64,000 bases of DNA from Blasia pusilla (taxonomy: Eukaryota): assembly GCA_050084515.1 (NCBI GenBank), contig CM114271.1, forward strand, positions 38,564,001-38,628,000, given 5' to 3'. The translations under genes were made by a program, and so were the position numbers. Of the stretch, positions 3,410 through 60,740 are shown in pieces (the stretch's first letter is position 1; each line of letters starts with the position of its first letter). The notes beneath the pieces are model-generated. The model did no database searches and had not been told where the DNA came from. It saw only the letters and a list, made by a program, of their open reading frames with translations.

Positions 3410-3620
3410 TCAAGGGAGGATGGGGCAAGAAGGAGGGACTCGGGGAGAGAGTGGAGGTGGGAGGATGAAGAAACGAGAAAGTTCGGGTCACAAAGGCAAG
3501 TGGGGGGATGAAAAAGAAGGGGGAGATTGGGCCGACATAGACAAGTCCTTCTATAAGACAGACGTAAGTCCACGGACATGGACTTGTCCGCGGACACAGA
3601 CTTTGTCCATATGCTACATA
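3410..3620. repeat. Dispersed purine/pyrimidine-skewed repeat (one arm of the foldback family)
   Basis: gagtggaggtgggagg..gaagaaacgagaaag...gatgaaaaagaaggggg...acaagtccttctata..aca matches 54205-54360 and is the reverse complement of 18050-18230 and 53890-54060. Confidence 0.75.
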
Positions 3621-3789: not shown

Positions 3790-4530
3790 GAGGAATTCTG
3801 ATCATGATACTTAGAGAGAGTTTTATAAGTATTATGTAAATTAGCTTAGAAAAAATAAATTTTTCATGTTTAAACTTCTTTATGGTGCCTCATTTGTGCG
3901 GGCGCAACTTTAGGAAAATAAGTAATAAATGAGACATGGAAGTATAAAAGTAAAGTAGTGGGTTGGTGTATTAATGATACTAAAGTTAAAGTAGTCTTGG
4001 TTGGTAGCTAGGGTAGTTTGGGTAGTTTGAAGGATATGAAATGAGTTCATGAGGATATTTTGGAAGAGATAATATATCATCTACTTATGTCAAAATGGGA
4101 TCGGCTAAGCCTTGAAAGGAAGCCATGTTGCACAAGATAAAATTAGCCATATTTTGTACTCTTGTGGATCCTTTGTTAGTATATACATAGAAAGGACTTT
4201 CAAAGGTTCATCACCTTCAACTTCATTTTTTGAGTCTCCCTTGTTACTCTTGAGTGGATGGAATTGGGCTGGCTTGCTCTTCCAACGAGAGTGGATTATC
4301 CCTCTTGGGAGAATGACTTGGGTAAGATCTATTTTTCAAGAGTTCCGAGATTCTGATGGATGTGGAGATGGTTACTTGGAGAGACTTGTCATCTTAGGGG
4401 AGTTATTTTCATACTAGGGATAGTGGATGGTTTTTTGACTTGTTACTTTTCCAATGAGAGTGAATTACCTCTCTTGGGAGAGCAACTCCGCCAAAACCCA
4501 GTCTTGAGAAGAATAGAGAATGTATGTCAA
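3790..4530. repeat. Unclassified dispersed repeat with internal subrepeats (gagtg.atta.c.ctcttgggaga)
   Basis: Its reverse complement recurs at ~32060-32745 and ~33751-33910. Confidence 0.7.
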
Positions 4531-4886
4531 TCATGGATAGAGATAGAGCACAAGTCGTACCTGATTTTTCTTTTCTCAATCCGTACCACGTAAAATTTCT
4601 CTTTGTAGATAGGTATTGGTTTACTCGTTATCTAGTCTACCATTTTGGAGAGGCATTCATAAACCAGGTCATGCAATCTCCAACTCCAATGATACTTCCT
4701 ATTTTCACGTACGGAAGGACGTGGGATTGTACTTTGTATGTCCTTATATAATGATCTATGGATGTTAATACATCTTTTGAGCAAGATTTACCACTAGTTG
4801 TGCCATTTTTCTTGTGTACAAGCGCAAAATAGTTTACATGGATTTCATAGTTACGAGTTTTGGGGTTGGATGTTATGAAGAAGTGA

Positions 4887-5627
4887 TGTCGTGCACATAC
4901 ATATCGCTACACAACATACATAGCTGGTCACATCTACACCACACAACATCGATCTTCCCCACACATGGGTCGATCCACACATGTAGAAAAATCAACTTAT
5001 ACATATACATGGAGATCACACAACAAAAATAAAGAGTAGTAAAAACGGCACATCCGGCCTAAAACTCCACTCCTCAATCTACATCGGCATATAGAGCCTC
5101 GTCCACCCTATGCTATCAAGGAATCCGGACGCTAGCACCCTAGTCCTATCTCACACACATACAAGGGAGGTGCTCCAACAACCCAACATGAGAAAGATGG
5201 CTTAGGAAAGCCACCTTCCTCTCTTATATAGGGTTTAGAAGAGCCAAAAGGCTCTTCCCCTAAAAATAGCCCTCCCCTTGGTAACTTGCGCGCACAGGTT
5301 ATCAAGGGCGGTGACCTGGTCAACAAGTCACCCGGTTGTGAAAGACCTCAACATAAAAGTTGTCAGAAACAACGTTCCTAACACAATGGATCTATCCTCA
5401 ACCTCATCCGACACTGTGGGACAAAGTTACACTCAAGATAGTCCGCTGGCTCCTACGCCCTATCCACGATAGATCTCGACCTATCGGCTACTCAGATGTG
5501 ACAGATGTCGTGCGCATACATATCGCTATACAACATACATCACTAGTCATATCTACACCACACAACACCGATCTTCCCCACACATGTACAAAAATCAACT
5601 CATACATATACATGGAGATCACACAAC
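4887..5627 (-). repeat. Split terminal repeat block of copy 1: B1 (5627-5506), 2-nt spacer, A2 (5503-5025), B2 (5024-4887)
   Basis: 4887-5024 and 5506-5627 are direct repeats (tgtcgtgc.catacatatcgcta...catggagatcacacaac). 5495-5513 reads gatgtgaca-ga-tgtcgtgc. A TATA-like motif (tatataag on the minus strand) lies at ~5223-5230. Confidence 0.9.
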
Positions 5628-5640
5628 CGCCCCCCTAACT
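5628..5640 (-). other. Polypurine-tract-like G-run (agttaggggggcg) immediately upstream of B1
   Basis: The plus strand reads cgccccccctaact-like C-run directly next to the start of the B1/B2 duplication. An equivalent (t)agggggcg tract precedes B in every copy. Confidence 0.7.
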
Positions 5641-5703
5641 GGCAGTTGGATCCCCCCAACTCCAAATAGAAAATATCACATCTCTCTGACATGACCTACT
5701 ACC

Positions 5704-5853
5704 CTATACACATCTTGGACACATCCATCGTCCCGTGGGAACCACATCAAGAGGGGGGGGGGTCAGACATGACATATGCCACCCTCGAGAATAACCATCA
5801 CATACCAATATGGTGGCTGCACCCCTCGCACATCCGCACAACATATACCTCAA
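5704..5853 (-). pseudogene. PHD finger at the integrase C-terminus (copy 1)
   Basis: LRYMLCGCARGAATILVCDGYSRGWHMSCLTPPPLDVVPTGRWMCPRCV*. This is a C4HC3 PHD pattern with two C>Y changes. Confidence 0.9.
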
Positions 5854-8830
5854 GTCTACAGGTATCACTGCCAAGCTCGGATCCACCATCCCATCTATGT
5901 TCGGAAGATAACATGGCGCATAATTGCGCACATGATCCTTCCAAACCATACCATCTTGTCCCTCCAACATTAGGACTCCGGTCGGTAATACCTCGCGCAC
6001 ACGTAGGATCGTGCGCCATGCAGTGACATCTAGCGTCGTGGGTGCCGCCTATTGTAAATACACGTAATCTCAAGGATGAAACCTCCTAATCCCTAGATGA
6101 TAACCTCCTCCACGAATGGTCGCGTACCTCAATGTATCTCTATGCTGGGCAATAGCTAAGTTCTCAAAGGCCATAGGCATAACTCTACGAAAAACCTCTG
6201 CCCTCTGAGAACATGCTTGTACCCACACATCTGGATCATCAAGATCTAACACCTCTGCCATGTCACGTCGAATCACTGCAAGTAAATCTGGCTCTCTCCC
6301 AAAGAGCAAAAAGTACGGTGAAAATGACGCCAAGGATGCCTGCCGACTAAAGCGATAACCCATAGCTAACCATGGAAACTATAGGTCCCACTCCCTCAAG
6401 TGTCCCCGCTGCAAGCCATACTTGCGTAATCCTCTCTTCACCGTCTGTACCACTCTCTCCGCCAACCCATCCGCCTCAGGATGATCTCTAGACGTGGTGC
6501 GGTGATCTATCAGCGCATGATCACACAAGGCTTGAAACTCTCCCCTGAACTCGATACCCTGGTCAGTCAACACCTCCGCCGGTGCACCAAAGTGACTAAG
6601 CACACGATCTAGAAACGCATAAGCTGTTCTCTTGCTCACCTTGTCTGGTAATGCCACCAACTCTATCCACTTGGAGAAATGCTCCACCATGACCAACACG
6701 TACCTATGATGACGCCCCGTCAATGGCAAAGGTCCCGCAAAGTCTTAACTCCACAGATAACCTAAACCCATAATCGGCAAAGGATGTAACTGCGGAGTGG
6801 GAGCATTGAAGGATGCTCGCACTCTGTCATATACCATACATCTGGCCATAAACTGTTGTACCCCAGTATGCATGCCGCGCCACCAATACTGAACCTGGAG
6901 TAAGCTGTAAGTACGCTTTACTCAAAAATGTCCCAACTCCTCATGGGCATGTCGCACTACACGTGCTTGCTGGGAAGGATGAGGTACCACTCGTATCCGA
7001 CCATCTTCCCATACCCGCAAAATGTAAGTCCCCTCCCACCTCAACCTCCTGGCTCTCTATAGGATCCAATCCCGCTCCCTAGTACTCAATGTACTCGCTA
7101 AGACGTCAATGCGCAAGAACTCCACAACCTCCACATCGTCATGGATATCACGACCACTGTTCGCCTCCTCACTAACCTCCAGATTGAAAGACTCATCATC
7201 CAACCCCACGGTCTGTTTTCATTTATGCGAGTTCAGAGTCTGCAAATGTGGAAGTACTTGGGAGGATAAATGCACGAGAGGATAGAGCAGAGCAAGACTC
7301 CAGAGTGCAGAGCTATTGAGCTATGGGTCAGCCACAGGTGATGATTGGAGTCATCACCTGTGGCTGACCTGCCATAGTCAACCAAAAAAGATAGGCAGAT
7401 GCATGCCAACCGGGCACCATCTCCTCATCACCCTCTCCGTGCCATCGAGCTCTTGTGTTGTCTCTCTGACTCGGACATGGGTTACGACTCAACCCATCTG
7501 CATCTTGGTTCAGCCGACCTGGCCTATGAACCACCTCAAACTCATACTCCTGTAGTAATAGAGCCCACTTGGCAAGCTTTCCCGTAAGCTTGTTGGACTC
7601 CATCAACCACCTCAACGGCTGATGATCAATGATAAGTGTGAAAGGGTTGCCGAATAAATAGCACCTGCAATGTGCCACGGCCCACACTGCAGCCAAGCAC
7701 TCCCCCTCATCGGAGCTATACTTTGCCTCTGCAATGTTGTTCGATCGGCTCGCGTGAGCCACAATGAACTTCCTCTCCTCGTCAACCCTCTGAGTAAGCA
7801 CTGCTCCTAGACCCAACATGCTCCAATCCGTATGTAATTGGAATGGGCGACCGCTAACCGGTCTCTGTAAAATGGTTGAGGACATCAACCTTTCCTTGAG
7901 CTCTTGAAATGCTCGCTCTTGATCATCTCCCCACAACCAAACCTGATCAAGTCTCGTCAACAAGGTCAAAGACTTTGCGATCGCACTAAAATCCTTGACA
8001 TACCGTCGATAGAAGTTCGCTAGTCCAAGAAAAGCTCGGACTCGACTCACATCTGTAGAGCGTGGAATCTGCGCAATAGCCTCTACCTTTGTCTGTTGAA
8101 CGCCTAACCCACTCGGGTATATGGTGTGTCCCAAGTACTCAATCTGCTCTTGAAAGAATCTGCACTTGCTTGGATGTAACTTCAGTCCATGTAACTGCAA
8201 TTTCCGAAACACCTCCTCCAAGTGTCGCTCATGCTCCTCAACAGTGGAACTGAAGATAAGAATATCATCTATGTAACATCGTACAAAATCCAAGCCAGCC
8301 AGAATCCTATCCATCACTATCTGAAACTCTGCAGGTGCGTTTTTCAACCCAAATGGTAAGAACCGCCACTGATACAAGCAATCTCTCCCGAACCAATCTA
8401 TCCCCCCGGAATGTTGTCTTCTCCTTGTCCTCCAACCTGATAGGAAGCTGATGATAGCCAGCACGGAGATCTAAAGTACTAAAGATCTTTGCATGCCCTA
8501 CCGCATCAAAGATCTCCTCAGGAGTAAGCATGGCGTATCGATCTGACCTTGTCTATCGGTTCATAGGACGGTAATCTCCACACATCCGCCTATCCGTCCA
8601 ATTGCAATACATATCCTTCTTTTCCGGCATGACTGTGGCAGATACATACTCCCCATGTGATAACTCCACAAGTCTTTCCTCCAACAAGTCCTGACTCCTG
8701 CTCTGAATCAAGGCTTGCTCCATATCAGAATACCTGTAGGGTCGACGAAAGATCGGCGTATCACTAGCCAAATCAATCCGTATCCCGGGACCCTTCAGCG
8801 TACCCAAGTCTCTCATACTGAAGGCAAAAC
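5854..8830 (-). pseudogene. RT-RNaseH-integrase of copy 1 (frameshifted, with stops)
   Basis: ORFs 8553..8816 (RPYRYS, RRMCGDYRPMN), 8307..8531 (FSTLDLRAGYHQ), 7328..8464 (LPFGLKNAPAEFQ, YIDD), 6379..6729 and 6070..6363 (integrase core). Confidence 0.93.
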
Positions 8831-9224
8831 AACTGATATGCCCTCTCAGAAACCTATGAACTCGCCGTCGCTCTCATGCTATCAACTTGAGACCTATCAC
8901 ACGCTCCCAAGTCTCCATTGTGACCTCACTCGGAGATGACGCAACCTCCGACTTTGGTTGCTATGTAGCAACCCTAGCCACCTTCGCAACAATCACTCCA
9001 CTTTGACCTCCTATACCATGCTCCGCATCCAAAAAATGAACATGTGCTACTCTAGCTGCCTTCACACTCTCTGCTCGAACGACGTCCCAGGAAGTCCATG
9101 GGTACCTATCTCTCCTCGTCTCGCCCCCAATCAATGCCTGTACAGACCCTATAGGAAATGGTCCAACTCATGGACGTGACGGCATGGATGACACTCGCAT
9201 CCGTCTCTGCTCAACCATACCTAG

Positions 9225-10175
9225 GCTGACTATCCATGTGAGATAGTTGAGGTCCATTGCCTGCCCCAACACCTGTCTCCGAGATGCCTCAGTCATCCTT
9301 GGCAGTGCCGTAGTACCGGTAGCGAACCCCATGGCGCGCTCGCGCTCATCTGCTATAGGCTCCTCCAATGCTCCGGTCACCTCATCCCAAATCATGCCTG
9401 GCCCTCCTTGACAAAAGGCATGGGATGTTGGGAAGCTCACCAACGTAGGTAAGGCTGCCCTCAACTCCCCCACCCTATTGGCCATGGCCAACGGTGGTCT
9501 ATCATCCCGTGTCACCACTTGAGATCGACGCCCTGAGCCCAAAATAGCATCCACTGTGAGATGTGGTGCTCTCTGGACTCCATCATATGCTCGACTCAGT
9601 ACCTCTGATGGTATCAGGTTCGTCCACCACAATCGTGGATGATGGGCACGTGATCCAACTCTCGCCGCATCTAATAACACAGCAGGTCCCAACCAGGACC
9701 TCATCTGATACACACTCGTCATTACACGTGCGCGAGTGTCTCCCAACAACGGCACGTTCTCCAAGATGTACGTTGGAGGACATGTCTGACTCTCCTGCAA
9801 GTGTCATACTACTCGCAGCATCTCCCAAAACATCCCTGACCTCGGATCCTGCAATCCAAATCCTCGGCCAGCTGATGAATGACCCTGACATGGCCATCCA
9901 GCAATCACCAAATGAATGGTGCTAACTCTATCCAGATCCTGCGCCCCCACCAAAGAGATGTCGGCGGGTAGTGTATGCTGATATCCCCCTACTATAGATA
10001 CTGGCACAACTCAGGATACCTCTGGACCAATCTCGCCACGTGACGTAATAATACTCGCCGCGTAGTCTCATCTCTCTCCACATAAAGGTACTGATGCACC
10101 TGTATGCCCTCCTGCAATACTGCAACCAATCCGGTGCTAATCCCTCCAAAGAGATCTAACACCCTAACACCCTCC
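9225..10175 (-). pseudogene. DNMT3-like DNA (cytosine-5) methyltransferase domain (copy 1)
   Basis: Motif I VLDLFGGISTG, motif II YLYVE, motif IV LVIAGWPCQG (catalytic PC intact), motif VI YILENVP, motif VIII DAARVGSRAHHPRLWWTNL, motif IX ERERAMGF, motif X RRQVLGQAM. Confidence 0.93.
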
Positions 10176-11509
10176 TCTGGGCAATGCCACACAACGGGTG
10201 TGGTATCTAGTGGGGTCAACGTCTCCACTCCAAGAGACCGATTGCCACGTGACTCTCGTTGCTCTGGGATAAAAGCATGACTCCACGCCTACCTCACGAG
10301 GTCGTCAACACTCCTCTGTAGCTCTCGAGTCGTACCCCACAATGGTGAAGAGGTCTCGCCAACATGGGAAGAGACACCCGCCATGGCCTGTCGCTCCGTG
10401 GGACTATCCACTACTGGGACATCCTCCGCATGTGCGTTCCCCTCCAACAACTCTCCAGGCTAGCTAACACTACCTGTGAAAGCCGCCAACGTGGTCACAG
10501 ACTCGCCTCGTGATCGACCACCTCGTCCCGCAAACTGCACGGATAATTGACTCATCCGGCCGTCACCTGACCGCCATCCTGGCCGATAAGCAACGGTCTC
10601 CTCCCAAAAGTCAAGGATGAATCCTAGGGGATATAACACTGTACTCCCCACCAACACATCGTACGACTCAGCTGGTGTCGTAATCGCACATGTGCGCACC
10701 ATAGCACTATCCGTCTCATGCTCTGGATAGACTCTGAAAACTATCTCCTATCGAGTCATATACTGCATGGGTGACATGCCCCCAATCGAGGTCTGTATCT
10801 GGAAGGGACAAGGCTCAATCTTGGCCTTCCGTAACCCCAACGCTAAACACGTCGCCTTCCCTAATATCAAGGGTTACGCTCCCGAATCAAGTAGGACGCG
10901 CTGCGGGTGGTATACTGTCCCCTTCAGACTAACCAAGCGATCCCTCCGATTTGTTGGTGGATTCCATTTTGGATCCAGGATGGCGGTAACAAGCAATGAG
11001 GCATGAGTTAATAGTTGTCAAGAGTATTGGCATGCCACGAGCAACCTTTCCCATATTTTTCTTCTTGCTTCCTATGCATATAAGGAGGTTGGTCTTGGCT
11101 TGGTATGGGATGAACAGGCTTGGTATGGCATCAATCTCTCCACATCGGTTGGTGGAGTCCAACATCAATGATTCAGAGCAAGCAATAGGTTTTCCTATAT
11201 GAGTGATGGAAGTACCAGCACTATCAAAGGCATATCGACGTCATGTCTTGGATGAGGAGATGAACTTGAATTGGTTGACATGGATTCTCATCTTAGGAGT
11301 AATTGAGTAGTGTTAGATGAGATTGGCCGCTCCTGATAAACCAAAATTTGATTACTGGGGTTCAGCGCTTCAAAGGCTCAATTGCGTCCCATGCTAGAGG
11401 TCCCAGACCTCCTCGCGGGGGTAGTTAATTCTTCTATTTTATGGGGGTTCACCAGAATTTTGGCATCATTACAGGATTTGGTATATCGTTTGCATGCGTG
11501 ATAATTAAC

Positions 11510-14500
11510 GCGACAGATCACTACTTTTGCACTTGTGAGCGCCATGCCTACCGAGATGGTTCATGTAGTGGTTGGGGGCAAGGTCCAAGGGGATTGACAT
11601 ATCACGGGTAATCAGGAGAGACACCCTTCGACTTCTTGGGATGTCTTGCAGGTACGCCAAGAGATGGTAGCCACAACATCGAGCCTAGTATATGGTCCTG
11701 CACAACAAGGAGAGAAGAGTGCAAAGTTGGTTACAAGAGACCAATCAAGTTTTGTTGTTCGAGATGGGGTTACACCATAGCAACCGTAAATACCTACGGG
11801 AGAGAGTCCTGTAATGGTCATGATGGAGACTTAGGAGCCAAATATGGGCCTTGATTTGATAGGAGGAAATCGAAATTATATACATTAGTTCCTTAGGAAT
11901 CATAGAACTTTTTTTACGTTTAGTATGCATGATTTTGGTACGTTGAAGGGTCCAGGGATCCACATTGATTTGTCAAGCAACACGCGGATCTTTCGATGAC
12001 ACTACAAGTATAGTGATATGGAGAGAGCTTTGATTTAGAGTAGGAGCCATGACTTGGTTGGACCAAGATAAGTGGAGATTTTGCATGGAGAGTATGCATC
12101 TACCACTATCATGTCTGCCAAGAAGGATGTTCATGGCAATTGGACAGATAGGCACATGTGTGGAGACTACCGACTTATCAATCGGTAAACGAAGTCCAAT
12201 AGGTGTGTTATGCATACTCCAGAGGAGATCTTTGATACTATTGGGCATGCAAAGATCTTTATTTTGTTGGTTCTTCAAGCCAGATATCATTAGGTGCCTA
12301 TCAGATTTGAGGACATGCAGAAGAAGACATTTGGGATATTGATCCTCACATGAAGGATTGTTTGTACTGCTAGTGGTTTTTACCATTTGGGTTGAAGAAC
12401 GTCCTGGGAGAGCTTCAAAGGGTCATGGATAGGATCTTGGCACGTATGGATCTCGCGAGATATTACATCAATGACATCGTAGTCCTTAACGCCATGGTTG
12501 AGGAGCACGAGCGATATTTGGAGGAGGTGTTTTGACGATTGCAATAACAAGGGCTAAATCTAGGAAATTGCAAGTTCTTCTAAGATTACATTGAGTACTT
12601 GGGTCATATAATATACCCAGGTGGTCTCTATCTATCTCACACTCTACGCCCTACAAATGTGGGTCGAGTTTGTGCATTTATGGGATTGACAATATTCTAT
12701 CGATGGTACGTCAAGGGTTTCAGCTTGATTGCAAAGCCACTAACCTTGCTGACCAAGGTGGATCACAAGTGGCACTAGGAGGATGAACAGTGGATATCAT
12801 TTCATTTGCTTAAGGATAGGCTGACGTCCACACCCATACTGAGGAGACCTATAAGGGGGCGTTCTTTCCAATTGCATACAGATTGGAGTATGTTGGAGCT
12901 TGGAGCAGTGCTGACCTAGCATGACGATGAGGTTAGAGAGTTTGTGGTGGCTTATCCTAGTCACTCAAACAACATTACAAAGGCAAAGTATAGCTTGTAT
13001 GAGGGTGAGTACTTAGCTACAATGTAGACTGTCGCGCATTTCAGGTGTTACTTATCCGAAAACCCCTTTACCATCTTCACTAATCACCAACCACTTAAAT
13101 GGTTAATGAAGTTCGATAAGCTTAGATGGTAGCTTGCAAGGTGGGCTCTATTATTGTAAGAGTATGATTTTCAGGTGGTTCATTCACCTGGGACACCCAA
13201 CCAAGATGCGGATGGTTTGAGCCATAATCTATGCCCAAGTCAGTGAGATGCGACTTGAGCTCGTTGGCATTGAGAGAGTGATGAGGAGATGGTGTCTGGA
13301 TGGCACGCGTCAGCATATTTGGGCTTGTTTGCTACAGAGAGCTAGAGTGTTGAGACTTTGATGGCGAGGTTTGATGGAGAGCCCTTAGATCCAAAGGGTG
13401 GTGAGAAGGCGACAGGTGACCGAGATATCCATGAGGATGAAGTAGTCTTAGAATACTTGCATATTGGCAACGTCATGAGCATGGTAGATGCTAGAGAGCA
13501 CAATGGGATTTTACATCGAGCCAGACGATTTTGATGGGAGGGGACACATGTATTGCGAGTCAGCGAGGATGGTAGAGTACACGTAGTGCCTCATCCTTCA
13601 CACAGAGCAAGTTTGGTGCATCACGCCCACGAGGATTTTGGACACTTTGGAGTGAAGCATACGTACAACTTGCTCTAGATATGTATTTGTGGCAAGGCAT
13701 GTAGAGTGACGTTCAATAGTTTGTTTCCAAATACATGGTATGTGATTGGGTCATGGCATCGTTCAATGCTCCAACTCCACAATTATATCCAATGTTCATC
13801 ATGGGTTTAGCTTATAGATGGAGCTTGGATTTTGTATAACCTTTATCTTTGACAGAATGCCACAGTTATTATATGTCGGTGTTGGTCAAACACTTCTCAA
13901 AGTGGATAGAGTTGGTTGCATTGCTTGACAAAGTGAGTGAGGGAGTAGCGTTTTCCTTCTTCAATCGAGTGTTAAGTCATTATGGCGCATCAGCTGAGGT
14001 ATTGACAGACTACGATACGGAGTTTTGCATGGACTTTCAAGCCTTGTGTGATCAGGCACTAATTGATCATGGCACTACTTCACGAGATCATCCTAAGGCG
14101 GATGGACTAGTGGAGAGAATTTTGCATATGGTGAAGATAGGGTTACATAAGTATAGCTTGCAGAGAGGTCACTTAGGAGATTGGGACCTACAACTGCCGT
14201 GGTTGGCGATGGGATATAGATTCAACACGTAGGCATCCTTAACGTCGTTCTCACTGTATTTTTTGCTTTATGGCCGAGAGCCTGATTTACCTGTGGCCAT
14301 TTTTCATAATGCGAGTGAGGTGTTGAATCTTGATGATCTTAATGTATGGATGCGAGCAGTTCTTTGAGGGCTGAGTTATTTTGAAGAGTTATGCCCATGG
14401 CGTTTGAGAACTTGGAAATTGCGCAACATCGGGATAATTTGAGGTATGGGACTATCGAGGGAGGTGGTGATCGACTTACAATACGAAGGTTTCATCAAGG

Positions 14501-15167
14501 AGACTTTGTTTACTTGCAACAGACAACACCAACAACATTGGATATAATCGTAGGGCTCACCATCTTGAGAGTGCAAGATATTTTGCCATCTCGTATTCTC
14601 TTATTGGAGGGACGTAATGGTACGGTTTGGAAGGACCAAGTGCGTAACTGTGCGCCATGTCACCTTCATAACATTGAGGGTATAGTTGATCCGAGCTTAG
14701 CAATAGTTCCTACATACTTACGTTGTATGTTGTGTGGTTCTACCCGTGGTGCAGCCACAATATATGCTAGTCTGTGATGGTTGTTTGAGAGGGTGGCGCA
14801 TGGCATGTTCGACTTCACCTCTCACTAGGGTTACTCGGGGACGATGGATGTGCCCCATATATACATAGAAAAGATATTAGGTAATCATAGATCCATGGTT
14901 TTATATCTGATATGGAGGACAAGAATTTGACTAACAGTAGGGCCACATGAGCACTCGGCCTTTTTGCTCTTAGTGTCCTAGTGATAGGGATAGATGGTTA
15001 TCTGGAGTTAGAGGGACCTAACCACCAGCTAGGGGGACGATAGGAGATATTTTTGTACTCGATAGTCTCGATGTTTAGATCCATGGTTTAGCCTGGTATC
15101 TTGTGTATTTGTGTATATATTTGGTGATATTGTTGTATGTATTATAGCGATGTGTATGAGCACGACA
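11510..15167 (+). mobile_element. DNMT/PHD gypsy-like family, copy 2: 5'-truncated (starts just after the MTase), heavily decayed RT-RH-IN-PHD, ends at B
   Basis: Colinear with 27690-31349. Integrase fragments are ORFs 13849..14232 and 14391..14777. G-tract at ~15031-15039, B at 15040-15167 ending gagcacgaca. Confidence 0.9.
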
Positions 15168-18029: not shown

Positions 18030-18320
18030 ATGGTTGCATGTGGACAAAATTCATGTGTGTGGACTTACGTCCGTCCATCGTCCTACAGAAAGATTTTTCC
18101 ATGTGGGCCTCACCTTCCCTTCCTTTCTCATTCCCCCCACTTGCCTTTGTGTTCCACATTCTCTCGTTTCTTCCTCCCTCCACCTCTACTCCCTCCCTCC
18201 TTATTTCTCCATTCTCGCCCTTGCCTTGCCTTCCATCATGAACTATAAGTGTGGATCCCCACCTCTTGCAATCCATGCCCGTCCTAAGGACAAACTTATC
18301 TGTTTTTGTGCAAGCATGAT
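18030..18320. repeat. Dispersed repeat, same family as 3410-3620 and 53860-54370
   Basis: Shares ccatcatgaactataagtgtgg...ctcttgc.atcc.tg with 54070-54115, plus the pyrimidine arm. Confidence 0.75.
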
Positions 18321-20143: not shown

Positions 20144-23100
20144 TGAGTTTGACTTATTGGGGTTGGCAAGATTGGTTTGTGGAAGAAGGATCCTGCAAGA
20201 GCTAGTTGTACATTGTTATCGAGTTCTCTCATCGTTTTGACGTGATGTCAAGCCACTGTTTTACAATTTTAGTGGTTTCAGTGCCATCACCGAAGAAAGA
20301 TCATGCTTTTCAATCATGAAAATATATATGCTCTCACTCTCTATAACCTTTCATGACTGACCTCCAATGGATCTGTGGCCGGATAATGGATTCCATCTTG
20401 GAGTTAAAAAATGTTCAAATCTTTCATCGTATGTTTGAAGCATATTCATTATTGACACTGCGGGAGTAATATGAGCTCTTCGTCTTCCATATCCGATGAA
20501 GGATAGCTCGTAAGGTGTAATGCATGATTCTCAATGGAGATTATGAGGTCCATTGTTAACTTGCTTGATAATACACAAATCAAGATTCCAAACTAGTTGC
20601 AAGCCTCTCTGACATGGAATCTAGATATCATTCAAATATATAGCTCATAATCCTCTCAGAACTCTCGGCACTAAACTCTTATGGATCCAATGCGCGTATT
20701 TGAGGATAGATAAGAAACAAAACACTTCAACTTATTGAGCTAATAATAAGACCCTCGGATTATTGAGCACAAAAAAATTGATACAACTAAGTTTGGCCAG
20801 GAGAAGTTTTAGTAAATCCTCAAGTGCCTATGGTGAAAAAAACCTCTATCAAATGAACACATGCAATACCCATGGTCCAACGCAAAACCTTGGTGCCAAA
20901 AAACACTAAAAGAAGAAGAATAAGGTTTAGAGCATGGGGGGAAAACTACATATGAAGTGTCCCTTTGGATACTTTGAAAATCGACATAATGTCCTTGATG
21001 CACCAAGTCCAATCGTTGTCGGTTGCTTGAGAATCTTCAAGAATTGTTTTCAATTACTTGAGAAGCTTATGCGACTCATCACCTCTTCTATTAGGAATGC
21101 ATACATGAAGATGTCAATCCCACGATGGTTTACTTGTTTCATCATTCTTCACGACCGGTATACTTGTTTTGTAGATCTGCTTGATGAAGTCATTGATCCA
21201 GATTGGATTAACAAGTTTCTCTGAGTTCAGTCTTATGATCATATCCCAAGCCATTACATGTGTTCGATGCCAACGAGTATCTTGGAATTCAAGGCACGAG
21301 AAAGTGCAATCTAGGTGCAATCAAACATGAAATTGATGCATAGTAGTTGTTGTAGTCACAAGTGCATTTGTTGCTTGTGTGGCAAGTACTTCAAAACTCT
21401 AAAAATTAGATTCATTGTTTCAAAAATGAATAATTGCATAACTAGTAAGGTTTTTCGAGTACTTCTCTGGGTCATCTGCCTCTAATTTCCTTTTTTCATA
21501 AGTTTTCATCATATAATTCCACAACCCACAACTAATGACAAGTGGAGGAACCTCTTTGATCGGCATAATTGCATAGTTGATGACCTTTAAAAGATTTTAA
21601 CTCACTTTACCATAGCATGGCAAAGACAATGCACACCTTGCAAACTTCATAGGTCCTATTTTTCATATATAAGAAGCTACATATGCTATTCATTGAATAC
21701 AATGTCTTTCCAATTCATTGATCCATATGTCATATGTCATGTCTTTTAGAATAAATTGGTGAGATCTAGTAGAGCGCCTTCGTGAGTAGTGGAGGATAGG
21801 CTTAATAGATTGAGGATGACGTGTTGAGGCCCCGAGAAACCTGAGAGAGCAGGTTTCCCCTTCGTTTCGGCTCATTTGGAACCATATTGAGGAACTTCTA
21901 TTTTAGGTAAGTACCATTTTGAATATATGATCAACTTTATATTTTTGGTAAGTGGCCCTTGACCTCTTACATCAGGTCAAGATCCAAGGAGGTGACTTCA
22001 GAGCATAGGCTACCATGGAGAGAGCTTGGGAGAGGGGAGGGATATACCTCAAGGAGAGAGAGCTGAAGAACTCATTCTCTCTTTGTTGAACCTCTTGGCA
22101 TGAGGCGACGGAGCTATGGTCTTGCTTGCCTTGTGTGTGTAACCCAAACCTCTCATTAGGAGAGTGGGTTTGGTTTGACATTGAGAGACACATGTGAGAA
22201 CTTTAGTGTTGTGAGAGAGATTTTATCGTATTTTACAAAGAGAGAATAAGTGAGTGAGGGAGCTTCATGGGGGAGCTCGTTGATCACTCTCTAGTTTTGC
22301 AGATTGGGGATCATATTCCCCATTCAGCGGTTCATGGGAGTGCTCACCGGAGCAAGAGCCGTTTACTTGTGATGTTTCCTATGACGATTTTTTGTGTGAA
22401 AGAGTGGCAGGCGGAAGCGCTGCCCAATTTTTGATAGGGATTGAGTATGGGGGCAGGTTGACCCATGCTGGTGCTCTTGGGAGCACCATGAAGCTTGCTG
22501 ATTTGTGTTCTCATATGTTTTATCGTTGGGAGAAATCAGTGCGGAAGCGCTGCCGAATTATGTGTAGGAGAAAGAGACATTTGGCTTTACGAAAGTCCTT
22601 GTCAGTTTTCACTGGAATGTTTGATTCCAAATATTTTTTTACATTCTTGTAGATTTTTAAGCTATGCAGGTTGTGCAACAAACGGTGTGCAATTTGGAGT
22701 TGCGAGCAAAAAGTTATAGTCAATCTTGCAAAATTGCCATTGCTAGGCGATTTTTAGGGTTAAATGGTTCAAACCCTAAACCAGCCGCCGCGTTGTCATA
22801 GTTGCCGTCAACGGTCACCGTCGATGGTCAACCATCAACCATCACCGTCAATGGTCTGCCATCACCATTAATGGTCCATGATCCACCATCGGCCGCTGCC
22901 CGCTGCTCAGAGTTGCGTTCGTCTGTTGTCCACTCGTTGGTTGCCATTGCCGTCACTAGGGAGTGGAGGGTCTTCCACGACCACCGTTGATTCTCTGACT
23001 TGCGCCGCCACCATGGACTTTGGTTTGGCCACCACCGTCATCACACTTTCGTCATCAACCAATGATGGGAGATAACCCCGGGTTATGGTGTTTGAGTTTT

Positions 23101-23933
23101 CATTTCATGCTGCTATATATGCTATATAGTCGCTTGACAATGATCGAGTACCGTGTCGTGACGCCCGTAGCCGCAACGTGCCGCCAATTGCCGCGTCAAA
23201 CTGCATGTGGTTGCACCGCACCGTCTCGACCGCGGAGCCGCTCCTTCACTAAGGTGCAGAGCATGTGAATTTCTGATTGAGGAGGGTATGCCGTCGAGTG
23301 TCGTGTCGTTTGTAGCCGTTCCGTGCCGCACCGGACTGTTGGACCTGCACCGCACATCGAGGAGATTTGAGCAGCGTCAGTACAAGAGGAGTAGGACTTG
23401 CTAATTGGAGGAGTTGTCTTCAAGACCGAGTTGGGGTCGAGATTTGTAGTTGCCGAGGAGCAATATCGACATTATTATCAAGTTACCTATTATGGTCTCT
23501 CTTACCCTACACGTGTGAGGGATTTTCGGATATTGGGAAGTTATTTGGGATATTGGGTTTTGTGTTGATGCTAGTAGCATCGATGATGTATGGGTTTAGG
23601 GGACATAGATCTGTGTGGGATGTCTAGAGTTGAGGATGGTTTGTCGATGAGACAATAGATCGGTTGATTTGCCGCACCACGCTCCTTGTTGCCGCACAAC
23701 ACACGTCTCAGTGAGAGAGTGTAGATTGAGTGCCGCATGTTTAGTTTAAGTGATTGAGGGATTACTCACGAAATTGAGAGTGATCGTGTGAGAGGGGCAC
23801 GAGGGCCATCACAGCGTCCTTTTGGGATTTTGAGAGGCGAGGTAGTGGACCTGAGAGTAGCTCTGGAGGGTTTACCCGGAGTGGTGCGAGGTTTCGAGGA
23901 TCTCCACGTGAGAGACCACCTCGATCTCCTTTT

Positions 23934-25454
23934 GTGTCATCTTCAGACGAGGGGGAGCGTATAGAGGAGTGTGTTAATGATCCATTGTACACATTGAGTG
24001 ATCCTACCATTTGGGCGTACAAGATGGACGACCAAGGTAGAGGACCGCGTAGGTTTTTGGGTGTTGTAGGCACTATAGAGCTACACGACTGCATTGTGGA
24101 GTTTTGGAGTTGGTGTGACTCATAGCGGGCTAGGAACTCTAGAGAGTTCAACCCGTTTACAGCATGGAACGGTTTGTTCTAGCATTTAGAGGGGGCGCCC
24201 ATGGACGATTACCATGAGTTCTCCCACAGATATGCCCAGAAGATTGAGGCATGGTGACTCTACTATGACCCACACTATATGTCATGGACGAAGTCGTTCC
24301 CTGCTGAGGAGGAGGAGTCAAGAGAGGCTACTTTCTTTTCCACTAGTGATGTTTTAGGAGGGGTCACTCTCACTGGAGCAGTTGCACCATCTAGTCGGGT
24401 TCGTCCCACGTTCAACCCCGTGGTTGAGTTCTTCGCTGAGTTGAGGGCCCAAGGGGTACGGACGGAGAAGTTGCGGAGCATCCATGACTTCCAGAGACGT
24501 CCGGGTGAGAGTTTGGGTGAGGCTTACACTCGCTTGCGCCGGTTGATCAACGTCACTCAAGGGGTGACGGAGGCTCATGCTATCCACTCATGGTACGCGA
24601 TGTTGGACCGGACCCTGCGGACACAGGTGCGGGAGGGGGTGCTTCTTATGGACACCTCCCATACTTTGAGAGATGTTTTTAGGACCGCCAAGAATATTGA
24701 GCGCAACATGGCGGAGGAGAGCGTAGCCACCATGGGTTATGGGCAAGAGCAGTCACGATTTTCTGCACCACCTGTGCAGCAACGTGGACTCCGAGATATG
24801 TCGATTGTGGCACCACGAGCTCAGGGAGGATGGAAGGGCGTGCCTTAGAGACTCGCGTCTTCATATACGGCTCAGGTGCAGCCGACTACTATTACTTGTT
24901 GGTCATGTGGTGGAGCCCATCATCAACACGATTGCACTCGTCAAGATCATGGACGTGTGCCTCAACATGGAAGAGGAGATGGTGCTGCACCAGGAGGTTA
25001 TCAGTGTAACTATTGTCAGAGGTATGGTCATACACGCGCTAGGTATTTCAATTTACATCCTGATTTACGTCCGGACCAAGGGCCAGAGAGGGCACCAGAG
25101 CGAGAAGTGGATCCGGATGGGGCTAGAGGTCGTGCACCAAGTGGTCCCGTTGGGGGACGAGGAGCTAGAGTTTCCCGACAGGATGGTGGAGCTGCCCATG
25201 GAGGAGGTAGAGTCCCACCACCTAGATACGTCGAGGGAGATGTTGGGCGTGAGGCTAGGATGGCTGCTAAGATACAACAGCTACAGGAGCAGATTGCCGC
25301 TATGGCATTGAGGTTACCCGATGTCGGATCCGTGGCATTGACATCATATGGAGCAGACAGAGACATGGAGGATCCTTGTTGGATGTGCGGGATTGCCCAA
25401 ATGGAGGCTGCCGCAATTGTGACACATGGAGCAGCTGTAGAGTGGGATCCATAA
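23934..25454 (+). pseudogene. Gag of copy 3 with two Zn knuckles
   Basis: MHR-like FQRRPGESLGEAYTRLRRL (ORF 24279..24848). Knuckles CWSCGGAHHQHDC and CNYCQRYGHTRARY (ORF 24876..25454). Internal stops are present. Confidence 0.85.
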
Positions 25455-25957
25455 TGAGGGAAAGCCAGGAAACATACTAGGCTTCCTCAGTCTTTCACGT
25501 TGTCTGAGGTGGTGAGGACCCCATCGATGGGTCCTGATCAGAGTTGGTGATGTTGTTGGTGTGCAGGCATGGAGGGCGATGGAAGAAGCAAGTGCGACGA
25601 CTCCTATTGCTGATGCTCAAGAGGGGCATGTGTTGAGCACGTTGTTGGGGGCGGCCATCGTTGTATACCGCGCTCTTTTATTTTCTGCTTCCGATGTTAT
25701 GACGTTGGGAGGTACGCCCGCCAAGGTTTTTTGGCTGGCCGCTACGCTATGTGAGCGTGGAGTTGGAGTTCTTGCATCACGTTTGGAGGTGATTGTAGAG
25801 GAGGTGATGGATCTGCCCTTGGAGCGGATGCTCGGGCCGTCCACGTCAGATTCATGGCAGATTTAGGATGGCAGACATGCCTGCTAGACCCGCGATAGAG
25901 CGTGCCATGGTTTCTCCTGGTGTTGTGTTGCTAGATAACCAGGGAGAGGTCTTCTAG

Positions 25958-26310
25958 TTGGTGACTCCCGGAGGTAGAGCTTTTAGTCCGCAGTGTGTCT
26001 TGGTGGATTCAGGAGCGCAACCCCTAATGTTGGGGAAAGTGTCATTCAAAGGATTGGGCTTGACGAGAGCCGATATGGAGCGTTGTCCATTTCAGATACA
26101 GACATCCTTGGGTGGAGCGAGTACCACAAAGTATATCACCTGATAGGAGGTCGTGGTGAGGATTTTCCCGGGACATCCTACATATGAGTTCGTGGTGCGA
26201 GCCAAGGCGATAGTGATTGATGCAGAGTCCTACGACGTCTTGGTTGGTGGAGCAGTGTTATACTCGATGGGGTTTTCCCTAGATTAGTGGGAGGAGTCAA
26301 CGTCCTACAG
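25958..26310 (+). pseudogene. Aspartic protease (retropepsin) of copy 3
   Basis: VLVDSGAQPLMLG active-site motif, followed by a YDVLVGG C-terminal motif at ~26230. Confidence 0.85.
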
Positions 26311-26714
26311 ACCAGGATGGAAGTCAGGTGATGGGCGCCTTAGCTCATTACCTATTTGATTCACAGGTGCAGTGATCGAGCAACGTCCAGGAGAGATGGC
26401 GACCTTAGCAGCATTTAGTAGTGCCATCACTTGGCTTAGTGATTTGATTGAGGGACATGTCCATGCAGAGGATACTCCTGTTCTTGACATTTCTATGGAG
26501 AGGAGTGTCATGGTAGCCGCATCAGTTCGTGGAGGAGAGGTGCCGCTTTGGGTTTTGACTGAGGGGCTTCGACGCTTTGCCACTGAGCATGTGCAGATTG
26601 CGTGGAGCGAGACATTTGCACTAGAGTGTGACGGGTCAGAGGAACCCTAGGTAGGCAAGAGTGATGCTATGATCCCTTTGGACACCACCCCAATTGTGTG
26701 GTGCACCACATAAG

Positions 26715-27660
26715 GGTATTCGGGTGTTGGATCTCTTTGGAGGGATCAACATTGGGTTAGCTGTTGTTTTGGAGTGCGCGTGCAACAGTACCTGTATGTG
26801 GAGATTGATGATGTTACGAGGCGCGCTTCACTTCACCATGTGGCACTGTTATGCCTCAATTTTCCCGACTTGTTGTCTACGTCCGCCATTCAGGGTTACC
26901 AGAGTTCCCTACCGAGGGACATTTCATTGTTGGGGGTGTAGGACTTTGAGCAGGTAGGGACCATAGACTTGGTCATTGCTGGTTGGTCGTGTCAGGGCCA
27001 ATCGAGTGCTGGACGAGGTAGCGGGTTAGCTGACACTCGTTCTAGGTTGTTTTGGGAGATGATGCGGATCTTGCGACATTTACAAGAGGATCAATCTCGT
27101 TCTCCAACATACATTTTGGAGAATGTGCCAATTTTGGGCAATTCGAGGTTCCGCGTGGTGACGAGTGCACATCAAGTGCGCGCATGGGTCGGCCCGGCAG
27201 TGTTGTTAGATGCAGCGAATGTGGGTTCACGAGCATATCGCCAACATCTTTGGTGGACCAACTTGGTACCACATGAGGTATTGCGGAGGGCTTATGCGAG
27301 AGTGGAGCGTCCCTCTAATTTTTGGGTGGATTCTATATTGGATCCGGGCGGTCAATCACAGGCAGTGAGGAACGATGATCGACCGCCATTGACTTTGGTC
27401 AATAGGATTGGCATGCCACTAGCCGCCTTTCCCACATTGGTGAGTTTCCCGCTTCCTATACATTCAAGGAGGCCGAACCTGGCTTGGTTTGGGATGACCA
27501 CGTACAGAGGTTGGTGGAGCCCAAGGTCGATGAGCGAGAGCGAGCGATGGGATTCCCCCCAGGAGTGACAGAAGTACCGTCACTATTGGAGGCATCACGA
27601 TGTCATGTCTTGGGTCAGGCGATGGACCTGAATTGCTTGACATGGATTTTCAGCTTAGGA
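26715..27660 (+). pseudogene. DNMT3-like C5 methyltransferase domain (copy 3)
   Basis: RVLDLFGGINIG, VIAGWSCQGQ (P>S), SRLFWEMMR, YILENVP, DAANVGSRAYRQHLWWTNL, ERERAMGFPPG, HVLGQAMDL. Frameshifted. Confidence 0.92.
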
Positions 27661-28079
27661 GTAGTTGAGCAGCGTCGTTTGAGGATACGACAAATCACAG
27701 TTGTTGTGTTGGTGAGCCCCATGCCTACCGAGATGGTTGAGGCAGTGGCTGGGGGCAAGACTCGAGGAGATCGACACACGAGGGGTGATCAGGAGAGACA
27801 CCCTTGGACTTCTTGGGATGTTTTGCAAGTACGCAAGGAGATGATAGCCACAACATCGAGCGTGGTTTCAGAAATTGCACGTGGAGATGGGAGTTCTTTT
27901 GTGCAAGACGGGGTTGCACCATAACAACCACCAACATCCGCGCTGGAGAGTCCTATCGTAGTCACAATGGAGACTTGGGAGCCAAATATGGACCCTAAGT
28001 TGACAGGAGGAGAGCGACGTCAAATACACCGGTTCCTTAGGAGTTATAGGAGTTGTTTTGCATTTAGTATGCATGATTT

Positions 28080-29400
28080 GGGTACGCTGAAGGGTCCAGG
28101 GATCCGCATTGAGTTGTCGAGTGACACGTCGATCTTCTGACGACCCTATAGATACAGTGACATGGAGAGGGCTCTCATTCACAGTAGGATCCAGGACTTG
28201 GTTGGAGTAGGACTAGTGGAGATGTCGCATGGAGAGTATGCATCTGCCATTGTCATGCTCGCCAAGAAGGATGTGCATGGCAACTGAACGGATAGGCGAA
28301 TGTGTGGAGATTACTGACCTATCAATCGGCAGACAAAGGCCGATAGGTATGCCATGCCCACCCCTGAGGAGATCTTTGATGCGATTGGGCATGCAAAGGT
28401 CTTCAATTCATTGGATTTGCGATTCGGATACCATGACCTGCATATCAGATTGGAGGACGGGCAGAAGACGACATTTTGGGGCATCGATCCTCACGGGAAG
28501 GATTGTTTGTACTAGTGGCGGTTCTTACCATTCGGGTTAAAGAATGCTCCGGCTGAGTTTCAGAGGGTCATGGATAGGATCTTGGCACGTCTGGATTTTG
28601 CTAGGTGTTATATTGATGACATCGTAGTCTTTAGCGCAACGGTTGAGGAACATGAGCGACATCTACAGGAGGTGTTTCAACAATTGCAGTTACATGGGCT
28701 GAAGCTACATCCAGGCAAGTGCAAGTTCTTCTACGACCAGATTGAGTACTTGGATCATACAATATACCCTGGGGGCCTTGGTGTGCAATAGACAAAGGTA
28801 GAGGCTATTTCACGCATTCCACGCCTACAGATGTGAGTCGAGTTCGTGCATTCATGGGATTGGTGAACTTCTATCGACGGTACGTCAAGGGTTTCAGTTT
28901 GATTGCGAAGTTGCTAACCTTGATGACCAAGGTGGACTAGGAGTGAAACTGGGAGGATGAGCAAGAGAGAGCATTTCACATGCTCAAGGACAGATTGACA
29001 TCCGCGCCCATATTGAGGAGACCGATCAGGGGTCGTCCTTTCCAGTTGCATATTGATTGGAGTATGTTGGGGCTTGGAGCTGTGCTCACCCAACATGAAA
29101 ATGATGGTAGAGAGTCTGTGGTGGCTTATGCTAATCACTCAAACAACGCTGCAGAGGCAAAGTATAGCTTGTATGAGGGTGAGTGCTTGGCTGCAGTGTG
29201 GATTATCGCACATTTCAGATTTTATCTATTTGGCAATCCCTTTACTATCTTTACTGATCATCAGCAACTTAAGTGGTTGATGGAGTCCGACAAGCTTATA
29301 GGGAAGCTTGGGGGTGGGCTCTTTTGTTGCAGGAATATGACTTCCAGGTGGTGCATAGACCTGGGACGCTCAACCAAGATGTAGATGGTTTGAGCCGTAA
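28080..29400 (+). pseudogene. Reverse transcriptase and RNase H of copy 3
   Basis: YIDD at 28609-28620, LKLHPGKCKF, LHIDWSMLGLGAVL, YEGECLAAVW, FTDHQQL. Confidence 0.92.
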
Positions 29401-29779
29401 CACATGCCTGAGTCAGCGAGATGCGACTCGAGCTCGTTGGCATGGTGAGAGTGATGAGGAGTTGGTGCTAGGATGGCATGCGTCAGCCTATTTAGGCTTG
29501 TTTGCTATGGAGAGCCAGATTACGGAGACTTCGATGGCGAGGTCTGATGGAGAGTCCTTAGATCCAGAGGTTGGTGAGGATACGATAGGTGGCCAAGACA
29601 TTCACGACGATGGAGTGATCTTGGAGTACCTACGTAGTGGCAGCGTCGCGAGCACAGTGGGTTCTAGAGAGCGGGATCAGATCCTACAATGAACCAGATG
29701 GTTCCGGTGGGAGGGCACACATGTGTTGCGAGTGTGGGAGGATGGTAGAGTGCGTGTAGTGCCTCATCCTTCGTAGAGA

Positions 29780-31039
29780 GCACGTTTGGTGCGTCATGCC
29801 CACGAGGAGTTAGCTCATTTTGGAGTGAAGTGGACGTACAACTTGCTCCAGATTCAGTAATGGTGGCGAGGCATGCAGACTGACGTTCAACAGTTTGTTT
29901 CCAGATGCATGGTGTGTGATCGAGTCTAAGCATCGTTCAATGCTCCAACTCCACAGTTGCATCCACTTCCAATCATGGGTTTAGGTTATAGATGGAGTTT
30001 GGATTTTGCAGGACCTTTGCCTTTGACGGAGCGCCATAGTCGTTATATGTTGGTGATGGTCGAGCACTTCTCAAAGTGGATAGAGTTGGTTGCATTGCCT
30101 GACAAAGTGAGTGAGGAAGTTGTGTATGCCTTCCTAGATTGAGTGTTGAGTCATTAAGGCATACTAGTTGAGGTGTTGACAGACCAGGGTATAGAGTTCC
30201 GCAGGAAGTTTGAGGCCTTGTGTGATCAAGCACTGATCGACCACCGCACTACTTTGCGAGATCATCCTGAGGCAAATGGACTAGCGGAGCGGGTTGTGCA
30301 GACGATGAAGAGAGGACTATGCAAGTATGGCTTGCAGAGAGGTCACCTTAGAGATTGGGACCTTCACTTGCCCTGGTTGGCGATGGGATACAGATTCAGC
30401 ATGCAAGCATCCATAGCGTCTTTCTTACCGTACTTTTTGCTTTATGGCCGTGAGCTAGATTTACCAATGGCCATTCATCGAGATATTCATGAGGTGTTGA
30501 ACCTTGATGATCCTGATGTATGGATACGAGCATGTTCTAAGAGGGCTGATTTATTTCGGAGAGTGATGCCCATGGCGTTTGAGAACTTGGCGATTGCGCA
30601 ACATCGGGATACGTTGAGGTATGCGACTATTCGGGGAGGTGATGATCGACATACTATCTGGAGGTTTCATCAGGGAGACTATGTCTACTTGCAGCAGACA
30701 ATACCCACGACGTTGGATGTGACTGCAGGGCGCACCATCTTAAGAGTGCGTAAGTTTTTTCCATCCGGTGTTCTCTTATTGGAGGGACGCGATGGTATGG
30801 TTTGGAAGGACCATGTGCGTAACTGTGCGTCATGTCATCTTCCAAACATTGACAGTAGAGTTGATCCGAGCTTAGCAATAGTTCATGCAGGCTTGCGGTG
30901 TATGTTGTTTGGTTTCGCCCGTGGTGCAGCCACTATGCTAGTCTATGATAGTTGTTCGAGAGGATGGCATATGGCATGTTTGACGCCACCTCTCACTAGG
31001 GTTCCTCAAGGACAATGGATGTGTCCCAGATGTACATAG
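29780..31039 (+). pseudogene. DDE integrase with C-terminal PHD finger (copy 3)
   Basis: HAHEELAHFG/CMVCD zinc motif, WSLDFAGP, LTDQG, GLAERVVQT, RFHQGDYVYL and a PHD at ~30892-31039. Confidence 0.92.
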
Positions 31040-45340: not shown

Positions 45341-45559
45341 TACTGTTTGAACCTTAGTAAACCGTGCCTCAAACTTATGTTGGCCACCTTCTCACCCTAC
45401 TTCAACTTCCTCAGGTATTCCCCGCTTGAGCATCCTTCATATATCCTTCACTTAATCCTTCTCTCCAGATCTGTTTCCTTAGGGAACATTGCTCTCAAGA
45501 CTGTGTCGTCGATGGCATGTGTTCCTCCTTGCGACTTTAACACATCTGGAATCACATTA

Positions 45560-48649: not shown

Positions 48650-48651
48650 CT

Positions 48652-60735: not shown

Positions 60736-60740
<5 letters not shown>

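Follow-up and report, generated by a model that had tools for sequence, protein, structure and literature searches.

A Ty3/gypsy retrotransposon family of the liverwort Blasia pusilla with a Dnmt3-like domain and split direct repeats in place of two terminal LTRs

Split direct repeats are usually taken as a hallmark of tyrosine-recombinase retroelements, and in PAT-like and Ngaro elements they are classically read as the trace of a 2-LTR circle that was opened inside the LTR. Retroviral-type integrases normally work on DNA ends, and work on foamy virus and HIV has described integrases able to cut inside a circle junction. As described in PMC4157794, PAT-like and Ngaro elements encode a tyrosine recombinase and carry split direct repeats in the order A1-B1-A2-B2, of which the internal pair lies 3' of the coding region. 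KnitGypsy-Dnmt3 of Klebsormidium nitens combines, according to the legend of Fig. 4c in its description, the repeat structure of a DIRS element with Gypsy domains (de Mendoza et al., 2018; PMC5890265), and a 2026 preprint names the group 'streptophyte Gypsy-DNMT3' (10.64898/2026.05.21.726589). Self-priming of reverse transcription is reported in PMC6317226 for Tf1/Sushi and predicted there for Tcn1 of non-seed plants.

Here we describe a family from the liverwort Blasia pusilla that joins several of these features. The window, by which we mean the whole stretch of 64,000 nucleotides that was analysed (contig CM114271.1, positions 38,564,001 to 38,628,000, assembly GCA_050084515.1), holds six degenerate copies (A to F) with 65-86% mutual identity in self-BLAST. 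The sequence-only reading had proposed that the 3' end of the element at 4887-5640 consists of a polypurine tract followed by B1, two nucleotides, A2 and B2. This is borne out by self-BLAST and by the sequence: the minus-strand order is G-run tract, B1, 2 nt (TC), A, B2 and then unrelated flank, and B1 and B2 are 82.1% identical over 140 columns (4885-5024 versus 5504-5627, E 1.6e-32, self-BLAST of the window). The features of copy A are as follows:

4887-10218, minus strand: whole extent of copy A
5704-10218, minus strand: internal coding remnant, 5'-truncated (Pfam matches and homology to copy C)
9168-9803, minus strand: Dnmt3-like part; its own ORF has no Pfam match, and its homologues carry PF00145
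7328-8470, minus strand: reverse transcriptase and RNase H (Pfam RVT_1, RT_RNaseH)
6379-6744, minus strand: integrase core (Pfam rve)
5704-6048, minus strand: PHD finger, with the ORF end at 5704 (Pfam PHD)
5628-5636, minus strand: G-run polypurine-like tract, immediately before B1 (sequence)
5506-5627, minus strand: B1, last bases CGACA (self-BLAST and sequence)
5504-5505, minus strand: TC, the two bases separating CA of the B end from TG of the A start in a CA-NN-TG junction
5025-5503, minus strand: A2, a diverged 'type I' A that begins TGTCAC and has a T-run at its end (multiple alignment)
5230-5224, minus strand: TATA box within A2
5198-5186, minus strand: predicted RNA start block within A2
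4887-5024, minus strand: B2, the 3' terminus of the element, ending CGACA (self-BLAST and sequence)

B1 and B2 of copy A share their starting nucleotide, the first base past the G-run tract. The same 3' end had been claimed for about 37446-38181 and is found there as well, in copy D (B1 to B2, 37452-38181), where self-BLAST aligns 37487-37572 with 38075-38160 at 79% over 86 positions. Copies A and D are ~70% identical to one another and show the same order and homologous junctions within different flanks, which argues that the block was inherited and is not a local accident. In both of them A is a strongly diverged variant: BLASTN gives no link to the A of the 5' ends, and common blocks, the same start and the same end become visible only by multiple alignment.

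The coding content identifies the family. Along copies A and C, Pfam matches follow the order RVT_1, RT_RNaseH with RT_RNaseH_2 (Ty3-type RNase H) and rve; the rve match (E 3.9e-14) denotes a DDE integrase, which is accompanied by a C-terminal PHD finger and, upstream, by a zinc-knuckle gag. A match to the C5 methyltransferase family PF00145 is present in copy C, and the intact homologue P0121 has DNMT3A, 3B and 3C as its closest relatives of solved structure (E 8e-11), with DRM2 and bacterial enzymes ranking behind them. The nearest proteins among the matches listed come from liverworts (Calypogeia 75%, Riccia 76%, Marchantia 58%), and the methyltransferase has homologues in many Marchantia and some Sphagnum gene models among those matches. 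The element is a Ty3/gypsy retrotransposon of a liverwort with a Dnmt3-like methyltransferase. Its Pol order of reverse transcriptase, RNase H and integrase is that of Ty3/gypsy elements; the two complete, identical terminal LTRs that also define them are not found, the 5' end being A only and the 3' end B-NN-A-B or a single B. That the element carries a DDE integrase and not a tyrosine recombinase, as had been claimed, agrees with the presence of rve and with the absence of PF00589 from the Pfam domains listed for 120 and 57 homologues.

Measured against the described systems, the family shares with KnitGypsy-Dnmt3, as that element is depicted in its 2018 description, a Gypsy-type polyprotein, a Dnmt3-related domain inside Pol, the order A-coding-B-A-B and a streptophyte host; it differs in belonging to a liverwort and in its C-terminal PHD finger. 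Both marks of the Gypsy-DNMT3 group are present, namely a Dnmt3-related C5 methyltransferase within the polyprotein and the A-coding-B-A-B order (as a composite of copies). On these shared features (repeat order, Gypsy Pol, Dnmt3-like domain) we file the Blasia family as a liverwort member of the KnitGypsy-Dnmt3 kind; none of the named hits among the 120 and 57 listed homologues is from Klebsormidium. The likeness to PAT-like (Pat1, TOC, Kangaroo) and Ngaro elements lies in the split direct repeats A1-B1-A2-B2. Those elements, however, have a tyrosine recombinase, no DDE integrase and no target duplication, whereas the Blasia family has rve, TG...CA ends and, in one case, a 4-bp duplication. 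As regards the DIRS order, split direct repeats are present, and a tyrosine recombinase in place of the DDE integrase is not among the domains listed for the homologues.

The remaining copies in the window supply the 5' ends and further variants of the 3' end:

10936-15167, plus strand: copy B, 5'-truncated, with its tract at 15031-15039 and a single B (15040-15167) before unrelated flank
21735-31349, plus strand: copy C, whole element
21735-22234, plus strand: A1 of copy C, 500 bp, with a TATA-like motif at 22043-22046; the A end at 22234 is set by read joints
22235-22247, plus strand: putative self-priming primer-binding site of copy C, adjoining A1; perfect 13-nt complement of 22074-22086
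22248-31219, plus strand: internal part of copy C, with leader, gag with zinc knuckles, Dnmt3-like domain, reverse transcriptase, RNase H, integrase and PHD finger
31211-31219, plus strand: G-run tract of copy C
31220-31349, plus strand: single B of copy C, its 3' terminus; both B limits are fixed by read joints
37444-37451, plus strand: G-run tract of copy D (sequence)
37452-38181, plus strand: copy D, 3' fragment; B1 37452-37583, TT, A 37586-38030, B2 38031-38181
40154-53812, plus strand: copy E, whole extent, interrupted by an unrelated nested LTR element (42329-49645) and internally deleted
40154-40663, plus strand: A1 of copy E, then a putative primer site at 40664-40676 (sequence and read joints)
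53235-53812, plus strand: 3' part of copy E; B1 53235-53362, AT, A2 53365-53812, without B2
55591-61104, plus strand: copy F, 5'-truncated; B 60157-60277, AC, A from 60280 into ~450 bp of leader

Copies C and E begin with the same first base of A (21735, 40154) next to unrelated upstream DNA. Local alignment to B, run over the 300 bp before these 5' ends and over the first 1 kb of the two copies, gave scores at the level of shuffled sequence in seven of eight tests. The remaining test was marginal (22 versus a shuffle maximum of 20, positive controls 41-87), probably owing to a GT-rich stretch. The claim that both 5' ends start with A and contain no B therefore stands. Copies B (15167) and C (31349) finish at one single B. 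In copy E, A1, B1-NN and A2 occur together in one copy, and A1 and A2 are 92% identical. Truncated 3' ends of the form tract-B1-NN-A2 had been assigned to copies E and F: at 53235-53812 this holds, with the cut inside A, and at 60280-61104 it does not, as A there runs into ~450 bp of leader. No single copy combines A1 with B2, so the earlier caveat persists and the full layout is a composite across copies. 5' truncation is seen in 4 of the 6 window copies. In copy F a (GT)n(GA)n microsatellite at 60650-60735 takes the place of the A end and the primer site, and in copy E the internal deletion (50366-50986) fuses a gag zinc knuckle to the end of the reverse transcriptase, the equivalent of 25033-28755 in copy C being absent.

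A metagenome scan with the IN-PHD protein returned six loci, without a usable 5' end of the close family, and no further copies were found in viral and prokaryote-genome collections. One locus, the young copy L001, reads tract, B1, GT, A, B2, its B1 and B2 being 98% identical. It is near-identical to L002 and L003 (few alignment mismatches, B 98-99%) as far as the terminal CGACA, and the three diverge beyond it: L001 continues with NN-A-B, L002 and L003 with unrelated DNA. At L003:484-500, B is followed by 2 nt and then by 7 nt equal to the A start (TGTCATG) before unrelated sequence sets in, which may be a remnant of the junction or may be chance. The other loci belong to a sister family (L004-L006, 53% amino acid identity), of which L005 and L006 seem to be one locus. 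L005 has the order tract, B1, 9 nt, A2 (1.45 kb), B2 and a damaged 5' end; its A1 matches just the last ~250 bp of the 1.45-kb A2, at 70%, and the stretch after A1 is weakly B-like. A primer-site complement of at least 9 nt was not found in the sister family. L005 is not a clean fit to the model set out below, and we leave it as ambiguous.

Copies A and D and L001 can each be followed without a break from the PHD ORF across tract, B1, NN, A and B2 to unrelated flank, and copies C and E from unrelated flank across A, the putative primer site, leader and genes as far as the tract and B. Window copies and metagenome loci were tallied together for their junctions. A B end passes into unrelated flank eight times (copies A, B, C and D, and L001, L002, L003 and L005), each time into a different one; B-NN-A junctions number six, A-B junctions four and passages from flank into an A start two. 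The 14 B starts are preceded by the tract in 10 cases, by an A end in 4 and by unrelated flank in none (0/14), and all 10 B copies that lie 3' of a coding region have the G-run tract before them (10/10). The spacers in the copies are TC, TT, AT, AC and GT, and AC and GC predominate in reads. The insertion ends are TGTCAY at the A start and CGACA at the B end in all copies, which amounts to TG...CA with an imperfect inverted repeat of ~7 bp, and inside the element these two ends occur again, facing each other with 2 nt between them. This arrangement resembles a retroviral 2-LTR circle junction, in which two integrase-type ends face each other as CA-NN-TG; the retroviral junction is an episomal by-product, whereas in the Blasia family it is constantly present within the integrated element. 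Ty3/gypsy elements are marked by TG...CA ends and a target duplication of 4-6 bp. Copy C, the only copy with both ends, is flanked by CATA on either side (21731-21734 and 31350-31353), a 4/4 match with a chance of ~1/256 at fixed positions; this is one duplication, with two 5' ends available in all. At copy E, whose 3' end is truncated, no target duplication is seen.

Reads of the same species, from one raw WGS run (X13, ~2 Gb sampled) and three contig sets, were compared with 21500-40700 where at least 80% alike. In the raw run, the B end at 31349 is joined to the A start at 21735 in 266 split reads, with AC between, and to the A start of copy E (40153/40154/40156) in 270, with AC or GC between. 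The A end of copy C (22233/22234) continues directly into the B start at 31220 in 225 split reads and the A end of copy E (40663/40664) does so in 767, giving ~536 split reads for B-NN-A and ~992 for A-B. As these A-B joints lie at the A ends of copies C and E, the subfamily with visible 5' ends also has the A-B junction. The read joints further define a true A unit of 500-510 bp, ~55-65 bp beyond the 447-bp match between A1 and A2 of copy E, so that A2 of copy E is truncated inside A, ~60 bp short of its natural end. A simpler LTR consisting of A alone, with B as a 3' UTR, had been suggested by copy E (447 bp, A1 and A2 92% identical, both apparently TG...CA) and was rejected: judging by the reads, A2 is truncated, and four window copies end at B.

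Read depth is ~5200 for A, ~5000 for B and ~3100 for the 3' coding part, or a B:A ratio of ~1, as rough estimates in which A is split across two reference copies and bins are 641 bp wide. Unique bins have a depth of ~1-3, and given ~3100 in the 3' coding bins of the element, the family comprises on the order of a thousand copies. Behind 31349, 2468 reads have loose ends, whose consensus is NN plus the A start at only 0.4 agreement; this would fit a mixture of A starts at internal junctions and unrelated flanks at true termini. Taken together, these data make the split layout A...B-NN-A-B, as the sequence-only reading had it, a real and inherited arrangement that extends beyond the window: it is found in copies A and D, in L001 (B1 and B2 98% identical), as a variant in L005 and in the reads.

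Several observations on the reads stand apart from the layout. Depth climbs along 22141-31114, from ~900 in the leader to ~2100 in gag and ~3100 in the part from reverse transcriptase to integrase; the cause is either frequent 5' truncation, something unusual in LTR elements, or greater divergence of the 5' part. Mismatches between raw reads and window copies (21500-40700) comprise 1302 C>T and 1426 G>A and between 104 and 625 of each other change, an excess that would be the signature expected of deamination of methylated cytosine, in a family that encodes a Dnmt3-like domain. A contig of run X1 (299 letters) equals the 5' flank of copy C without mismatch and breaks exactly at the A start with 57 letters over, which could reflect a different allele or a graph artefact.

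Landmarks of reverse transcription are found at both edges of B-NN-A. Directly behind A1 of copy C, 22235-22247 is a perfect 13-nt complement of 22074-22086, a length that 1 in 20000 shuffles reaches, and the complementary block lies 28-31 nt past the TATA-like motif inside A. The primer site is GA-rich, and in copy E the complement extends to only 9 nt with its own A1 and 11 nt with its own A2. The 13-nt site has the pattern of Tf1-type self-priming and is a putative primer site, the RNA start being predicted from the TATA-like motif. A self-priming site right after U5, complementary to the RNA start, is described for Tf1/Sushi and predicted for the Tcn1 clade; those elements differ in having two complete LTRs and a chromodomain. 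Given that the tract adjoins the B start and the primer site adjoins the A end, B-NN-A is the unit that reverse transcription would copy to both ends, and these independent landmarks match the circularly permuted LTR that had been proposed. At the A-B junction, no nucleotide intervenes between the last base of A and the base that elsewhere follows the G-run tract; judged by its sequence, it would look like a precise LTR-LTR circle junction, with the last base of U5 followed by the first base past the tract. At its outer left end the B-NN-A unit reads AT, then TGGAG, which would likewise resemble a processable LTR end.

Layout, junctions, landmarks and abundance can be read directly from the copies and reads, and from them we infer a route of integration. 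At a probability of roughly 0.6, we favour an integrated form A1 - primer site - genes - purine tract - B1 - NN - A2 - B2 whose integrase uses the internal CA-NN-TG site. Reverse transcription would proceed as in an ordinary LTR element, primed in the manner of Tf1 by the 5' end of the RNA itself, and would yield DNA with an LTR of the form B-NN-A at each end. The integrase would then bypass the outer LTR ends and act at CA-NN-TG within the LTR, a site resembling the junction of a retroviral 2-LTR circle. Opening of a 2-LTR circle at this site would give A-int-B-NN-A-B, which could replicate because two R regions are kept; opening of a 1-LTR circle, or nicking of both LTRs of linear DNA, would give A-int-B, a dead end for want of a second R. 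Insertion would then generate a short target duplication, and copy C, with CATA on both sides, would be of the A-int-B kind. Regarding the earlier proposal of a gypsy lineage with non-standard replication and integration, the gypsy Pol and the permuted layout are supported, and the integration route would be as outlined here.

Other accounts of the same repeats have to be weighed against integration at the internal site. The family might be an ordinary LTR retrotransposon with B-NN-A as its LTR and integration by the outer ends, in which case 5' ends at A, 3' ends at B and A-B joints would be later truncations, tandem LTRs and recombination products. The purine tract and the primer site do bracket exactly B-NN-A, the expected product of reverse transcription, copy F has B-NN-A followed by the primer-site leader, and the equal depth of A and B fits too. 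We nevertheless regard this account as unlikely, as an unrelated flank precedes none of the 14 B starts, the sole A with unrelated DNA downstream (copy E) ends inside A, two independent 5' ends begin at the same A base, eight 3' ends with different flanks finish at the same B base, and CATA is duplicated around copy C. It also predicts no A-B joints, which are as common in the reads as B-NN-A. Very unlikely, in our view, is an LTR made of the whole B-NN-A-B block at both ends, with the 5' end of the type I subfamily simply missing from the window, as it indeed is. Although the tract adjoins B1, the block begins with TG and finishes with CA, and the stretch past A1 of L005 is weakly B-like, copies C, E and F run from A straight into the primer site or leader without B, and the subfamily with visible 5' ends has these A-B and B-NN-A joints as well. 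The B:A read depth, roughly 1 and not 2, speaks for excluding such a B-A-B LTR at both ends.

PAT and Ngaro elements are defined in PMC4157794 by this very repeat order, which would suggest the DIRS/PAT/Ngaro-type route, with a closed circle inserted by a tyrosine recombinase acting in trans or overlooked and with rve not being the inserting enzyme; degenerate stretches of the window do lie outside the domain scan. PF00589 is, however, carried by no listed homologue, the rve core is present in the copies, and the TG...CA ends with their inverted repeat are of the integrase type. A 4-bp duplication flanks copy C, and tyrosine recombinases, to our knowledge, make no target duplication; we hold this route to be highly improbable. 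As for chance, degenerate repeats are densely nested in the window and copy E contains an unrelated LTR element, and nested or adjacent insertions or assembly artefacts could in principle mimic a common layout. This explanation, which the sequence-only reading had named as a possible source of the B-NN-A junctions, can very nearly be dismissed: in six copies drawn from two sources of data the junctions occupy homologous positions, if with varying spacers, and their recurrence in hundreds of raw reads already contradicts it.

Papers found by searching the literature for split direct repeats in gypsy or integrase-bearing elements concern, by their titles and abstracts, tyrosine-recombinase elements or TEs in general; the one earlier mention that we found is a sentence in the 2018 legend. 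The fact that this legend already notes the layout weakens a claim of novelty. Section 9 of that paper and its Fig. 4 legend do not describe termini, primer sites, target duplications or a mechanism; as far as our literature search reaches, the mechanistic reading and the abundance in a bryophyte are new. Landmarks such as the tract by B, the primer site by A, the junction sequence and the single-B dead-end copies turn a one-sentence mention in a legend into a testable model. A family on the order of a thousand copies that combines split repeats with a DDE integrase and TG...CA ends further implies that the layout is independent of the recombinase, and it offers a natural system in which to ask if a retroviral-type integrase can use an internal site resembling a circle junction. 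More tentatively, and at somewhat less than even odds, we propose that in a DDE lineage the attachment site has shifted from the ends of the LTR to an internal palindromic CA-NN-TG, with integration from circular cDNA, that this is an ancient streptophyte trait common to Klebsormidium, liverworts and mosses and coupled to a self-encoded Dnmt3 and PHD reader, and that a different enzyme would thus have led to the life cycle that has been put forward for DIRS, PAT and Ngaro. LTR finders that seek two terminal repeats are likely to mis-delimit or miss such elements, which would distort repeat annotation and the dating of insertions in bryophytes.

The surroundings of the copies hold further repeats. 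A ~1.1-kb repeat (3889-4890) adjoins B2 of copy A directly. Copy C has a counterpart (31632-32733) 282 bp beyond its B, with 71-74% identity and unchanged relative orientation; with a read depth of ~150 the repeat is moderately repeated, and a shared target preference or coincidence are both possible. The element nested in copy E (42329-49645, minus strand) is an ordinary LTR retrotransposon with ~1-kb LTRs that are 95.6% identical, an aspartyl protease ORF (47029-47469) and ~5-7 bp of the host element duplicated at its edges, and it provides a useful contrast to the permuted family. Short MITE-like repeats occur at 53917-54319, 18042-18277 and 3443-3589, with internal inverted arms (53918-54030 versus 54319-54207), and one of them lies ~100 bp past the truncated end of copy E.
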